64,000 bases of DNA from Giardia intestinalis (GCA_000002435.2 CM018791.1), one strand, 5' to 3'. Positions 1 to 20,576 are shown, numbered from the stretch's first letter. Notes: generated from the sequence alone by a model not told the origin. Numbers and translations are program-made.

Positions 1-286
1 AGACGCCATTACTGTGCGGGATCCTCTGAGCTTCACTATCCATAGGCACGGGTTTGTGTTTCCCTTGCCTCGTAGAAGGTTCTCGGTCACGCTAATGCAG
101 GCAGGAAAGGAGGTTTGTGCACTTGACGGAGTCGAGGGAGTGGCAGGACTCAACACGATCTATCTAGATAGCTGTGCTGAGAGGATGCAGGAGCTCCGAG
201 ACAAACAATACTACCTAAAGCTATGCTCTCAGAAGATGGAGTGCACGGTAACGCCGACTTTCACGGTACTAGATGACACTCATTGA
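1..286 (+). CDS. 3' end (last 95 or more codons) of the arm-duplicated cathepsin-B-like multidomain gene. This is a partial CDS that enters from beyond the left window edge.
   Basis: The frame is open from position 2. Translation DAITVRDPLSFTIHRHGFVF...VLDDTH is identical to the C-terminus of the 783-aa protein at 20291..22642 (-). Confidence 0.7.
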   Translation, partial: DAITVRDPLSFTIHRHGFVFPLPRRRFSVTLMQAGKEVCALDGVEGVAGLNTIYLDSCAERMQELRDKQYYLKLCSQKMECTVTPTFTVLDDTH

Positions 287-3200
287 CACACTCTGATGAA
301 CTAGATGGTAAATCTATCCTAAGCAAAGATGTTGTCGGTTACACTGGACAGACTGTCATAAGCTCCTTCCCTTCATAGCCGACCGACTTTACCGAGGCTC
401 CGAGAAGAACAGGCCGACACCAGTTTATGCCGAGCATGCCACCAACACACCAGCCAGCCAAAACCTCTGACATTAGCGCTCACTCCTTCATCCAGACAAG
501 TATCTAGCAAAGCCTAGAGCCCCGTGCCCTTGTTTCATTCTGCTGTAGGAGCGAAACCCAGAGGCGTCCCAAGTTCTCTGTACTCGACATAGCGAGAGGC
601 CAAAACTAGGATAGGGACCGTCTTACCACTGCAGACCAGTGTAGGCGCACATAGAACCGCAGCAGAGAGGATCCTAGAGGCATCCTTAGCATCTTCGTAC
701 TAAGAAGGCCAGAGCTGGACAGAGCCCCTTTTCTATAATCCAACTGGAGTCCGGCACTAGTATTGGGGGAGTAAGATCCTAGCCCCTAGAGCGCAAAAGG
801 CACAGGGTAATCCGATCCAAAGCAATCTATTCTCGACACGCATTGCAGCCAGCGCCCTCAGCAGCATACGAACAAAAGGCATGCACTTCCGATTATGCAG
901 ATCAACACAATCCATTATACGGCACAGCCACTTTTGCCAGACGAATCCCTGTGCATGGAGGCATCCAACTAAGCTACGGAGACAGCGTGGGCCAGCTGGG
1001 CGCCGAACGTATACAGAAGAGCGACATATTAGTAAGGCACCTTGTTAGAGATTCGAGCCGTACAGCGTTATCACTAGGGGACTGCTGCAGAGAAAACTGT
1101 GAGAGGATGAGGAACAACTGGATTGCCATACAACCGGCTCGAAGCAAAACCACTTTGCATGACAGAACAGCTCTCCGTGTCAATATGAATATTGTCATCG
1201 AGAATGGCTCAGGGAAGAGAAGCACATGGTCAGAGCGGATGGTATAGGAACAAGGTGTTGTTTGCCAGAACTGCGACGTGGGTGCCCAGATTACCAGATT
1301 CTGGAGGTAGATGGCATCGGTGCTTTTAGTCCTGCAAGATCCCATTGTCTGCCTTATGGCAATCTCAGAACACACGCCTAAGTGGAGAGATAGGGCGCCA
1401 CCAAGGAGTAAACAAGAGAAGTTAAAGTGCAAACCTGTCGTTGGGGTCTAGTCTTTCATGCCTACACTACCCCTGACAAGGATGCATCCAACCACTCAGC
1501 TGCTCGAGATTGGAATCAGTACACCGGAAATGTTATGGCAGAATGAGGTATTCAATTGTTAGTGCTAGGTGTGGATTTTATTCTTATGTAGGGCTAAGTA
1601 GTATGATTAAACAGGTGCCCAGAGGCTTCATAGGGGAATGAATAAGGAGCCATCAGCGAGTTCGATGCTTGGGCTATAGTGTAACAGACAGAACGAGGAA
1701 GCGGGACTCTCTCCCGTGGTGCATCATGCTACTCTACTATTTCATGCGAAGAACAGCTTTGTTGCAAGGGCTCTGTATCCCCATGGCCTATCGGCTAGGG
1801 TCCGCCATCACATAATGTCGCTATCTATATCACCGGGCTTTCTATCGCTATGTAAGTCAGAGCTGCCTTCTCTGCATCATCACTGTATCAATGTACTGTG
1901 CCAGCAAAATCCTACTGTCTTACATGACACGATAGAGGTAGGCACGTTGCACATAACGAGTCCATTCACGGACAGGGGGTTTTGAGGCCTTTTATCTTTG
2001 CTTTTTCTGGCATCGTCTATCAGTAAAAGTATCCAGCAGTGCCCGAGCCCAGCAATTCAACTACTGCAACGGTGGGTGCGCAGTGAGTCTAACGCGATCA
2101 TCATATGAAGACTGCACAACGCCAGGGATATTCTGTTGGATGCTCCTATCGGACTTGGTATCAAGAATGGCATGAAGGGGACATGACCATCACATAGGCT
2201 GCGTGGTACCAGTAGTGTTAGCACAGTAGCAGATCTGGATAGGCCTGAAGGTAGACAAAGCCTACAAGCAAGTGACTCGTCCTCTTTGCTGCTACAACAG
2301 GTGCAATAGCACGTGGGTCCAAAGTCTAACCATCTGGGTCACAACTGTTACATATCGAAGGAGTGGACCGCATGGGATGCAGGCACGTGCAATGAGGAAT
2401 GTGAGAAGGCCACCTGGTCCAAACAGTGTCCCTGCTACTACTGTCCTCATTGCGTGGTGCACTCCATACCTAGAGTTCCGGGCTCAGACTGAACCCTGAG
2501 CCAACCCTCGAGAGATCCCATCTCCAGAAGGATGCGTCCTTCACTGTCTATGGCAGCGGGGTCAAAGAACTATGGCCCAAGTGCAGTCAGACTGGTTCGG
2601 TGTGGGGTGCAAGCGCCCACTATTCTCTCTCTGGCCGTCCAGTACCATGTGTTCTGTATCAGACAGGCAGGATCTGACGTTGCACAACACAAGAGCCCTT
2701 CCAGGATGTGCAGGGGGCTGTGTGATCTGTGATGGTGGCGCGTCTCTACCTTCGAAGATGCTGGCAGAGCCAGTGAGCCTAGTGAAGTACACCGGTAGCT
2801 ATAGCGTACCGAATGGATCAAGCCCTTTGCATCCGGTCACGAATTATGCCTTTGTAACAGACCACAGGTGAAGCGGGAAACTTAGCCCTGATGGTGGCAC
2901 GACTGTAATGGCTGGTGAGTCCAGAGTAACCGCCGAATTGGAGCCGTCGATGTGGTTTTCAACAAGGTACAGCAGAGCGTATGAGCCAGCTGAGCACTGA
3001 TGCTGGGCTTCTGAAGAGCTGGGGCTTGGACCTCTCAGATGAAGCAGGGTGAATTGTGTTGTCCTTGCTGAGTAATCTTAGAATCTCAAAGTGTCTGGAT
3101 CCGTACTTGCGTGTCCGTCAAAACCCACAGTGTGCTTTGGGACCGCACTAGTTGATAGGTCGAGATATTTGAGAAGAGCTTTGCTGTCTTCTGCCATCAG

Positions 3201-20300: not shown

Positions 20301-20576
20301 TCATCTAGTACCGTGAAAGTCGGCGTTACCGTGCACTCCATCTTCTGAGAGCATAGCTTTAGGTAGTATTGTTTGTCTCGGAGCTCCTGCATCCTCTCAG
20401 CACAGCTATCTAGATAGATCGTGTTGAGTCCTGCCACTCCCTCGACTCCGTCAAGTGCACAAACCTCCTTTCCTGCCTGCATTAGCGTGACCGAGAACCT
20501 TCTACGAGGCAAGGGAAACACAAACCCGTGCCTATGGATAGTGAAGCTCAGAGGATCCCGCACAGTAATGGCGTCT
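11315..20576. repeat. IR1 right arm (inverted copy of 1..9262)
   Basis: Same mirrored-ORF evidence. Symmetry axis is at coordinate 10288.5. The arm necessarily continues past 20576 into the cathepsin-like gene if the left arm continues off-window. Confidence 0.9.
11632..13287 (-). CDS. Second, 100% identical VSP copy, convergent (tail-to-tail) with 7290..8945
   Basis: The 551-aa translation is identical, and coordinates mirror about 10288.5. The 3' ends face each other across 2.69 kb. Confidence 0.92.
   Translation of the reverse strand: MLLVAFYFVLSALAAECSAEGTAKDNCEANHCEMVGGTEICTQCQTGKVPIDGQCAGATDSNTKCKNADGVADADQTCGKCLLETFMYKGGCYVTTKAPGNVMCGDAAAGKCTQVKAGYFLPPGADNAHDSVVSCGDTTGVTLTDNKKYTGVAGCGKCEQPGEAQNGTPKAATCTECQADKYLKTESGTTSCVDEGNCNNGFFPTTDAQSNNKKVCALCSEADKGGIADCKKCSLKATSARAGPMVTCSECTNNNLSPLKDECMLGCPAGTYANNKVCTLCHESCAGCQTDDKETSCTACYPGSVLEHDGDLTTGKCIQECTGRYAENCEAGQCTAVVGGSKYCSRCKTGFVPINGMCVSTTARAATECVAGEGVCTSCTGAYFLESGGCYKTGAFPGNTLCIAAGANGKCANCANGQNADPQTGACPPCPANCSKCSGDSDVKTCTECYSGYYLDTGKECKKCSETSGNIQGVPNCVSCKAPSSPNAPTPVTCYVKTDATNNGDNDNNGGSTNKSGLSTGAIAGISVAVVVVVGGLVGFLCWWFICRGKA

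Follow-up and report, generated by a model that had tools for sequence, protein, structure and literature searches.

Giardia genomes are known to contain inverted pairs of identical VSP genes, and vsp7.1/7.2 is among the pairs already described. The WB genome holds 19-20 such pairs (PMC2996952, PMC7000408): 12-13 are tail-to-tail, with a narrow spacing of 2.5-2.8 kb (10.1101/2022.03.07.483299, PMC7000408), and seven are head-to-head. Seven identical VSP pairs occur in G. muris (Xu et al., 2020, Microb Genom, PMC7641422), of which five are tail-to-tail and two head-to-head; the layout is the same as in the pair considered here, and thus recurrent in the genus, but the VSP sequences are unrelated, and the intervening DNA in G. 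muris carries NEK, ankyrin or zinc-finger genes or pseudogenes, whereas the centre of the pair considered here has no recognisable gene. For the origin of such pairs, Adam (2010; PMC2996952) proposes relatively recent duplication and transposition.

The locus described here lies at the start of the window, a stretch of 64,000 nucleotides from Giardia intestinalis (GCA_000002435.2 CM018791.1), whose positions are counted from its first letter, with negative numbers for sequence upstream of it. The sequence derives from chromosome 3 of Giardia intestinalis assemblage AI, the isolate being WB or a strain virtually identical to it.

The palindrome and the published VSP pair

Positions 1-9263 and 20576-11314 of the window are reverse complements of each other, with 0 mismatches when compared base by base about the axis i+j=20577. 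This confirms the palindrome proposed in the first-pass annotation, including the near-perfect identity of its arms; only the arm length of 9262 given there is one base too short. A repeat search of the window returns the inverted arms as 1-9318 and 11259-20576. Chance cannot account for an inverted repeat that is perfect over 9.3 kb, and the two arms, which reach 99.9% identity or more, flank a unique centre of 1549 nt as their non-duplicated spacer. Each arm carries, from the outside inwards, the 3' part of a cathepsin-B-like gene, about 7 kb free of genes, and a VSP, an order on which the ORF, Pfam, Rfam and tblastn analyses agree with the earlier description. The arms and the VSP genes are located as follows:

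1-9263, no strand: left arm, perfect part visible; its true start is at window -1943, 1944 nt before the window
7290-8945, plus strand: VSP gene, one of GL50803_136003/136004 (vsp7.1/7.2), 551 aa; ORF, exact protein KAE8303243.1/KAE8303244.1
8960-8966, plus strand: AGTAAAC, a polyadenylation consensus match 15 nt past the VSP stop codon, mirrored in the right arm
11314-22520, no strand: right arm, complete perfect part of 11,207 nt; the end at 20576 given in the first-pass annotation is the mirror of the window start
11632-13287, minus strand: VSP gene, second copy of GL50803_136003/136004, 551 aa; translation identical to that of 7290-8945

The two VSP ORFs are identical and lie tail to tail with 2686 nt between them, the 2.69 kb noted previously. 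Their translation (56.2 kDa) contains 60 Cys (10.9%), 18 CXXC motifs and two occurrences of GGCY, and both ORFs end in ...GLVGFLCWWFICRGKA, a C-terminal transmembrane segment followed by CRGKA, as is characteristic of VSPs. The start codon, in the context CCTCA|ATGTT, forms a CAATGTT initiator of the (C/T)AATGTT type, and PF03302 is precomputed for a protein (P0019) identical to the VSP of the window. The Giardia polyadenylation consensus, to which the AGTAAAC downstream of each stop codon conforms, is AGTRAAY. In an orthologue search with VSP7, the closest match beyond its own single-member WB cluster is a WB paralogue, at 83%, and outside WB nothing comes nearer than this.

An exact-sequence look-up finds this VSP as KAE8303243.1 and KAE8303244.1 (one sequence under two accessions), on a WB contig of 1,973,847 bp. 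The locus is the same as that of vsp7.1/7.2 (Adam, 2010, BMC Genomics 11:424; Xu, 2020, Sci Data 7:38) and differs from it in nothing of kind. Table 5 of the 2010 paper (PMC2996952) lists for the tail-to-tail gene 7 an ORF distance of 2687 and a 3' divergence of 318 (572) nt, to which correspond, in the window, 9263-8945=318, ~9513-9517 minus 8945 (568-572), and 11632-8945=2687; Additional file 1 gives 551 aa, 56.2 kDa, 60 Cys, 18 CXXC, CAATGTT and chromosome 3, and the VSP of the window equals it in length, mass, Cys, CXXC and initiator, with chromosome 3 fitting the WB contig. Table 2 of Xu (2020; PMC7000408) enters the pair as 136003/136004 on chr 3, convergent, 551 aa, 2686 bp. The locus shows both marks of the published pairs, namely identical inverted ORFs 2-4 kb apart and an abrupt divergence of the flanks a few hundred nt beyond the ORF. 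The novelty implied by the first-pass annotation does not survive this comparison, since the pair was already tabulated by gene number, size and spacing (PMC2996952; PMC7000408).

What extends the published description lies further out. In the 2010 paper the 5' divergence point is left blank for tail-to-tail pairs (PMC2996952), and in those parts of the published Giardia papers that the search covered, the arm extent of 11.2 kb, the truncated protease copy, the age argument and the paralogous locus were not found. It is highly probable that the feature is the published pair GL50803_136003/136004 forming the core of a genuine 24,464-bp inverted duplication, in which the left arm is ancestral and the arms have been homogenised in WB.

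Outer boundaries and the two protease copies

The left arm continues beyond the window for a further 1944 nt, as seen from outside contigs, and the structure is thereby larger than its visible part, in line with what had been anticipated from the window. In contigs assembled from other sequencing runs, the outer boundaries fall at window -1943 and 22520, giving a whole structure of 24,464 bp with perfect arms of 11,207 bp each (window and outside contigs combined), where the left-flank sequence is taken from Logan contigs, which are short-read, probably RNA-seq, and possibly collapsed themselves. Four of these (L003, L004, L005, L007) follow the right arm at 100% identity as far as window 22520, where the match breaks off abruptly; in L003, positions 7730-10548 correspond to window 22520-19702 at 100%. 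The 5' divergence point thus precedes the VSP start codon by 9233 nt and lies within the cathepsin-B-like gene, with the arm boundary falling inside codon 62. On the other side of the right junction, 102 nt away, is the ATG (22623) of a divergently oriented ankyrin-repeat gene. The features of the outer arms are:

1-286, plus strand: intact cathepsin-B-like gene, left copy, 3' end (KAE8303242.1 / XP_001710319.1, 804 aa); start off the window
287-7289, mirrored at 13288-20290, no strand: gene-free stretch, 7.0 kb; longest ORF 154 aa
20291-22432, minus strand: 5'-truncated cathepsin-B-like copy (KAE8303245.1, 714 aa as annotated); the open frame continues to 22642
22520-22521, no strand: right-arm outer junction; similarity to the left-flank contigs ends abruptly, and the junction is also present in the ~2% diverged contig L002

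The ends of the Logan contigs were considered as markers of the repeat boundary and rejected for L001 and L003-L007, as they differ between runs. L001 begins 2 nt before an ATG. From the variable ends, and from the start of L001 near an ATG, we infer that L001 and L003-L007 resemble RNA-seq assemblies. L002, which comes from a different isolate, passes the right junction without a graph break; were the arms of that isolate identical too, an assembly of DNA reads would be expected to break there.

Both protease genes (KAE8303242.1 and KAE8303245.1) are named Cathepsin B-like cysteine proteinase at NCBI. The right ORF, 20291-22642 on the minus strand, matches Pfam Peptidase_C1 (PF00112) with E=3.8e-39 and contains the motif QGSCGCCYA; its 783-aa product has as its C-terminus the sequence encoded by ORF 14-286 of the left arm, is identical over its last 742 residues to the left-copy protein (P0006), and comprises, as residues 70-783, the annotated right-copy protein (P0009). 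The full left gene is carried by L003, where its N-terminus is signal-peptide-like. In the right copy, unrelated sequence takes the place of codons 1-62 of the intact gene (MMVLLPFLLLLYGTLG...), no ATG precedes the catalytic Cys, and the annotated start Met follows the QGSCGCC motif; the right copy therefore lacks the signal peptide and pro-region, the codons for which are present in the left one. The neighborhood of the left copy, in which IF4E, ParA and NUDIX genes are syntenic with the cathepsin-like gene, is kept in assemblage B (L009) and assemblage E (L010), whereas the right arm abuts the ankyrin-repeat gene. The intact gene and the synteny shared with assemblages B and E thus identify the left arm as the ancestral copy.

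The stretch between protease and VSP yields no Pfam match among its five longest ORFs in 287-7289, no Rfam match at E<=1 over window 1-23000, and, by tblastn with VSP, cathepsin and HCMP proteins, no remnant of any of these. Retrotransposon relics of the kind reported around VSP pairs in a preprint (10.1101/2022.03.07.483299) were likewise not found in these 7 kb by ORF Pfam and tblastn searches.

Inner arms, centre and a paralogous locus

Towards the centre, the perfect arms give way to a diverged segment, which in turn encloses the spacer:

9264-9513, no strand: inner diverged left arm; diverged patch 9264-9405, then a perfect 108-nt block; G-rich 22-nt repeat at 9409-9484
9514-11062, no strand: asymmetric centre, 1549 nt, ~61% G+C, non-coding; its two halves are unrelated
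11063-11313, no strand: inner diverged right arm, by gapped alignment to the left one; G-rich 22-nt repeat at 11096-11167

Gapped alignment of the inner arms yields 231 identities over 254 columns (~91%), with 16 mismatches and 7 gap columns, which bears out the diverged inner patch described earlier; the perfect block of 108 nt spans 9406-9513 and 11063-11170. The centre has no significant Pfam match, no Rfam match and no recognisable gene. A central ORF of 223 aa was rejected as a real gene: it is only 59% identical at the amino-acid level to its relative in another contig (L011), despite 84.6% identity in nucleotides, and is thus not under protein constraint.

This relative belongs to a paralogous locus, represented by the DH contig AHGT01000106.1 (L006) and the ENA contigs L008 and L011, in which window 9479-10579 matches, at the 84.6% just given, the spacer beside a different VSP (L011). 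The paralogous locus shares the order of a cathepsin-like gene, ~7 kb of non-coding sequence, a VSP, a 3' flank of ~500 nt and the centre, with 89.5% identity to the window over 8 kb (22520-14592), 80% in the 3' flank and 84.6% in the centre; the gene-free stretch is ~87% identical, with 86 gaps across the whole alignment, and the cathepsin gene ~97% identical at the DNA level (L008 vs L003). It differs in an upstream aminotransferase and in its VSP (506 aa), and the inverted 3' flank beyond its centre is only 72% identical, so that this locus has not been homogenised. In WB, the protease has its paralogue in KAE8304641.1, which is encoded on chromosome 5 (4.0 Mb). The family of centre and flank thus comprises at least two loci (85%, 80% identity), plus further diverged relatives in other assemblies.

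The layout of this second locus, with the same succession of VSP, 3' flank and centre, bears on whether the palindrome is real at all. A fold-back or chimeric long read, or a collapsed region that was wrongly duplicated, could produce a false palindrome, and perfect arms that run off the window may look like such an error; moreover, the VSP duplicates of the earlier assembly had been questioned as artefacts, according to a preprint (10.1101/2022.03.07.483299). To this reading we give next to no credence. The same divergence points and spacing are reported for the Sanger (2010) and the PacBio and optical-map (2020) assemblies; the centre is an asymmetric 1.55 kb rather than a bare fold-back point, and the inner arms are diverged; and the two outer junctions differ from one another and are found in independent runs, the left one in L003, L004, L005 and L007, the right one in L002. 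Where an artefact would lack a real spacer and independent support for its junctions, both are present here, and an assembly error is very unlikely.

The recurrence of the layout also raises the question of a function. In one reading, the palindrome is a regulatory module, in which read-through of the convergent VSPs would give antisense or dsRNA for an RNAi-type silencing, as has been proposed to underlie VSP switching, and selection would keep the arms identical. Circumstantially, this fits the identical pairs that recur within WB (12-13 of them tail-to-tail and 2.5-2.8 kb apart, as published) and again in G. muris, and a centre whose family occurs at more than one locus. Selection for such a purpose would, however, need far less identity than is seen, which spans 7 kb on the upstream side of the VSP and enters an unrelated gene; a polyadenylation-signal match of its own stands 15 nt past the stop codon of each VSP; the centre, at 84.6% between loci, is no better conserved than the presumably neutral 7-kb region (~87%); and the seven identical pairs published as head-to-head would produce no convergent transcripts. 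A regulatory module is scarcely probable on this evidence. A broader version, in which all tail-to-tail palindromes are one module (VSP, 3' flank of ~550 nt, centre of ~1.1-1.5 kb, inverted flank, VSP) that spread between chromosomes, with arms evolving in concert and a convergent layout serving a purpose (antisense or dsRNA silencing, or a programmed site of VSP-cassette recombination), is improbable as well; homogenisation at the vsp7 locus extends 9 kb beyond the VSP.

Age and probable homogenisation of the arms

The ampliconic palindromes P1-P8 of the human Y chromosome, with arms of 9 kb-1.45 Mb, undergo arm-to-arm gene conversion. They share with the Giardia palindrome the long inverted arms of near-100% identity, the unique spacer, and probably also an origin of the arms before lineages separated, combined with identity of the arms inside a lineage, the signature of concerted evolution. 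The Giardia palindrome differs in being much smaller, with arms of 11 kb, and mostly non-coding, and in its host, a tetraploid, largely asexual protist; further, conversion in Giardia is deduced from one junction in one other isolate, whereas for the Y palindromes both arms are available from several species.

This junction is that of L002, which is colinear with the window across the right boundary, from the ankyrin 5' region into the truncated cathepsin-like copy, and which diverges from the window by 2.32% in the arm and 1.96% in the flank, the right junction being the one recovered for that isolate. As L002 has the same right junction, the duplication is probably older than the split from this ~2% diverged isolate. 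Arms that had evolved independently since the split would be expected to differ by ~2%, at ~230 sites; in WB they differ at 0, a count that comes from one assembly, in which a few real differences may have been lost when near-identical repeats were polished. The duplication thus seems older than the divergence at the level of AI/AII, with arms that are nevertheless identical, which favors intrachromosomal homogenisation over the 2010 view of a recent duplication. The arm-to-arm gene conversion put forward in the first-pass annotation gains indirect support from the old junction and the identical WB arms; that it is 'ongoing' we continue to infer. Concerted evolution, as deduced from these sequences, would concern the WB lineage only.

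Were the pair instead the product of a very recent, one-off inverted duplication, the arms would be identical through youth, without any gene conversion. Their perfection over 11.2 kb agrees with this, as does the finding of VSP7 only in WB-like genomes, and it is the view proposed by Adam (2010; PMC2996952). It is rather unlikely, in that the right outer junction is common to a contig that is 2.0-2.3% diverged throughout, so that the truncated copy probably predates the split; that the left copy is not derivable from the right, which is without the 62 N-terminal codons; and that over the inner 250 nt the arms differ by 9%, as a mosaic in which a diverged patch adjoins the perfect block of 108 nt.

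Under homogenisation of an old duplication, events may have proceeded as follows. An inverted duplication with the left arm as source would have produced the right arm, whose right end fell inside codon 62 of the cathepsin-like gene, and this would have preceded the split from the ~2% diverged isolate. The arms would then have been kept or made identical in WB through intrachromosomal gene conversion from arm to arm, or through an equivalent repair by long-tract recombination, and this homogenisation probably stops ~320 nt past the VSP stop codons. As a result, the antigen gene is present in two identical copies, and the second copy of the protease gene is crippled.

Descriptively, this adds to the published pairs that the duplicated unit is an arm of 11.2 kb, which extends beyond the VSP and has also created a truncated copy of a cathepsin-B-like gene; it needs to be taken into account when reads are mapped, expression is counted or copy numbers are determined for VSP genes, and contributes modestly to the question of how gene copies are kept identical in a tetraploid that is largely asexual. 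Within the inner arms, comparison of the differing sites to the third locus gives a mixed pattern: 33 match the left arm, 19 the right, and 13 neither.

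The palindrome and its outer boundary

The first 20.6 kb of the window form an inverted repeat, whose arms a repeat search places at 1-9318 and 11259-20576; compared base by base about the axis i+j=20577, they show no mismatch from 1 to 9263, so that the 9262 bp of arm identity claimed in the first-pass annotation is correct within one base. In gapped alignment the inner arms reach 9513/11063, with 231 identities in 254 columns, and it is within this stretch that the diverged inner patch described at first pass is located. The gene order proposed for each arm (3' part of a cathepsin-B-like gene, about 7 kb free of genes, VSP) is found in both, and the two VSP ORFs, said to lie tail to tail 2.69 kb apart, are indeed identical, with a gap of 2686 nt.

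Features of the palindrome
Each arm, outermost part: last 285 nt of the cathepsin-B-like ORF
Each arm, middle part: 7003 nt with no ORF >154 aa
Each arm, innermost part: 551-aa ORF with C-terminal CRGKA
7290-8945, +: left VSP ORF, same sequence as the right
11632-13287, -: right VSP ORF, same sequence as the left
9264-9405: diverged inner patch (gapped alignment)
Inward of the patch: perfect 108-nt block containing a G-rich 22-nt repeat (gapped alignment)
9514-11062: centre, 1549 nt, its two sides unrelated to each other

The left arm, as had been claimed, runs off the window, and its end can be placed through short-read Logan contigs from four other sequencing runs. Three of these (L003-L005) encode exactly the 804-aa cathepsin-like protein and the fourth (L007) a 99.8%-identical variant; upstream of the gene, all carry IF4E, a ParA-like ATPase and a NUDIX protein. 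Aligned to the right arm, they are 100% identical inward of window position 22520 and unrelated outside; the outer boundary thus lies at 22520 on the right and, by symmetry, at -1943 (left of the window) on the left. With the left end placed in this way, the perfect arms measure 11,207 bp and the whole structure 24,464 bp.

Identity with a published VSP pair

The VSP contains 60 cysteines (10.9%) and 18 CXXC motifs in 56.2 kDa; its initiator sequence reads CAATGTT, and 15 nt past the stop codon lies the signal AGTAAAC. Exactly these values are tabulated by Adam et al. 2010 (PMC2996952, Additional file 1) for vsp7.1/7.2 (GL50803_136003/136004), a 'tail-to-tail identical pair' on chromosome 3. 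In Table 5 of the same paper, pair 7 has its 3' divergence at 318 (572) nt and its ORFs at a distance of 2687; the window agrees, with perfect identity ceasing 318 nt past the VSP stop codon, all similarity lost about 570 nt past it, and 11632-8945 likewise equal to 2687. Table 2 of Xu et al. 2020 (PMC7000408) has the pair on chr 3 as 136003 and 136004 (-> <-, 551 aa, 2686 bp). By exact-sequence look-up the protein is KAE8303243.1/KAE8303244.1, on a 1,973,847-bp contig of WB clone C6, with KAE8303242.1 (804 aa) and KAE8303245.1 (714 aa) as neighbours, each under the name cathepsin B-like cysteine proteinase. The window thus belongs to chromosome 3 of the WB reference, or of a strain virtually identical to WB.

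The palindrome is this published locus, neither a new member nor a new variant of the identical inverted VSP pairs, of which 19-20 are already catalogued for the WB genome (PMC2996952 among the sources) and which are also known in G. muris. Also on record are gene conversion affecting assemblage A VSP genes (PMC12669663), the gene-poor setting of VSP genes, and the resemblance of spacers from one pair to another. The arm length of 11.2 kb, the position of the outer boundary within a protease gene and the cross-isolate argument for homogenisation were not found by keyword in the searched parts of Giardia papers; they are refinements of a known feature.

The two cathepsin-B-like copies

The outer boundary cuts the cathepsin-like gene in codon 62. 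The left copy begins with MMVLLPFLLLLYGTLG..., which looks like a signal peptide. In the right copy (20291-22642, -; annotated by NCBI as KAE8303245.1, 714 aa) unrelated sequence replaces the first codons, no ATG precedes the catalytic-Cys motif, and the annotated start is a methionine downstream of it; a divergently oriented ankyrin-repeat gene starts 102 nt beyond the end of the copy. Lacking a signal peptide, and with its annotated start downstream of the catalytic cysteine, this copy is probably a pseudogene and not a protease. In a different isolate, about 2% diverged (contig L002), a gene caller gives it a 771-aa ORF with a non-ATG start.

Since the synteny of IF4E with the cathepsin-like gene is kept in assemblages B (L009, JXTI01000129.1) and E (L010, ACVC01000769.1), it is the left arm that occupies the ancestral position, and the right arm is a copy derived from it. 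Both of these contigs stop inside the cathepsin-like gene or 229 nt past it, which hints at a repeat or synteny break beginning at the same place in both assemblages.

Another Logan contig, L001 (1-5361, window 22621-27981), begins 2 nt ahead of the ankyrin ATG, and the ends of L003, L004, L005 and L007 differ between runs (window 875, 427, 1418 and 1009); for these reasons all five look like RNA-seq assemblies. If they are, transcripts of the intact cathepsin-like gene extend 140-1130 nt beyond its stop codon, into the 'gene-free' region.

Probable homogenisation of the arms

Between window positions 28118 and 20194, L002 crosses the right junction without loss of colinearity, so the truncated right copy predates the split of the two lineages. 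Its divergence is 2.32% within the arm and 1.96% in the flank, as measured on a Logan contig, which may derive from DNA or RNA reads. Had the arms been independent since the split, they should differ by about 2%, or some 230 sites in 11.2 kb, yet none is observed, a count in which assembly polishing may mask a few true differences. Past the perfect part, divergence rises to 9% in the innermost 250 nt and is mosaic. A recent origin of the left copy from the right is excluded by 62 codons present only in the left. The simplest account, drawn from one junction and one other isolate, would be homogenisation between the arms, in the WB lineage and later than the split, through gene conversion or equivalent long-tract repair, halting about 320 nt beyond the VSP stop codons; this lends indirect support to the gene conversion proposed at first pass. 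No close relative of this VSP was found outside WB in a set of 5.8 billion proteins.

A paralogous locus

A locus on another chromosome (DH contig L006, AHGT01000106.1, 10186-15899; ENA contigs L008, 1-11519, and L011, 1-6457) has the same order of parts as arm and centre and, outside the VSP, is 80-89% identical to the window.

Parts of the paralogous locus
Cathepsin-like gene: ~97% DNA identity to the intact left-copy gene (L003)
Non-coding stretch, ~7 kb: ~87% identical to the window, alignment with 86 gaps
VSP: 506 aa, different from the window VSP
3' flank: 80% identical
Centre: 84.6% identical to window 9479-10579

Between its 3' flank and the inverted copy of that flank on the far side, identity is only 72%. 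The locus is a tail-to-tail module without homogenisation; the layout is thus old, and homogenisation varies by locus. That tail-to-tail VSP modules in general serve double-stranded RNA production or recombination seems improbable.

That the palindrome is an assembly artefact is scarcely credible: the Sanger assembly (analysed 2010) and the PacBio plus optical-map assembly (2020) concur on the structure; a fold-back would not leave a 1.55-kb asymmetric centre between diverged inner arms; the two outer junctions differ and each occurs in independent read sets (left in L003, L004, L005 and L007, right in L002); and the paralogous locus repeats the layout of VSP, 3' flank and centre.

The non-coding stretch and the centre

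Neither the 7-kb stretch nor the centre has a significant match in Pfam or any in Rfam, and no remnant of a VSP, protease or HCMP could be recognised in them. For a 223-aa ORF in the centre (9664-10335, -), ENA assemblies contain seven relatives, which share 46-68% of its amino acids; but its identity to L011 is 59% in amino acids, far below the 84.6% in nucleotides. It is thus rejected as a gene, and the centre is read as a non-coding family that is diverging. Five of the seven relatives sit on contigs 0.9-1.9 kb long, as would unique centres remaining between collapsed palindrome arms; the spacers of several VSP pairs may thus form one diverged non-coding family.

Other features of the window

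A second large inverted duplication (28089-31516 and 47128-50555; 3428 bp, 1 mismatch) carries the 3' 3.3 kb of the gene for a coiled-coil protein (46584-50384, +, 1266 aa) over into a truncated ORF (28260-31523, -, 1087 aa), the copies enclosing a 15.6-kb spacer with about eight genes. L002 ends exactly 30 nt inside this repeat, as expected of a k=31 graph at a repeat boundary, and the repeat is thus probably present in that isolate. At 58310-61720 (-) lies a 1136-aa cysteine-rich membrane protein, resembling high-cysteine membrane proteins, with 14 consecutive aspartates and one transmembrane segment, at the C-terminus; the CRGKA tail is absent.
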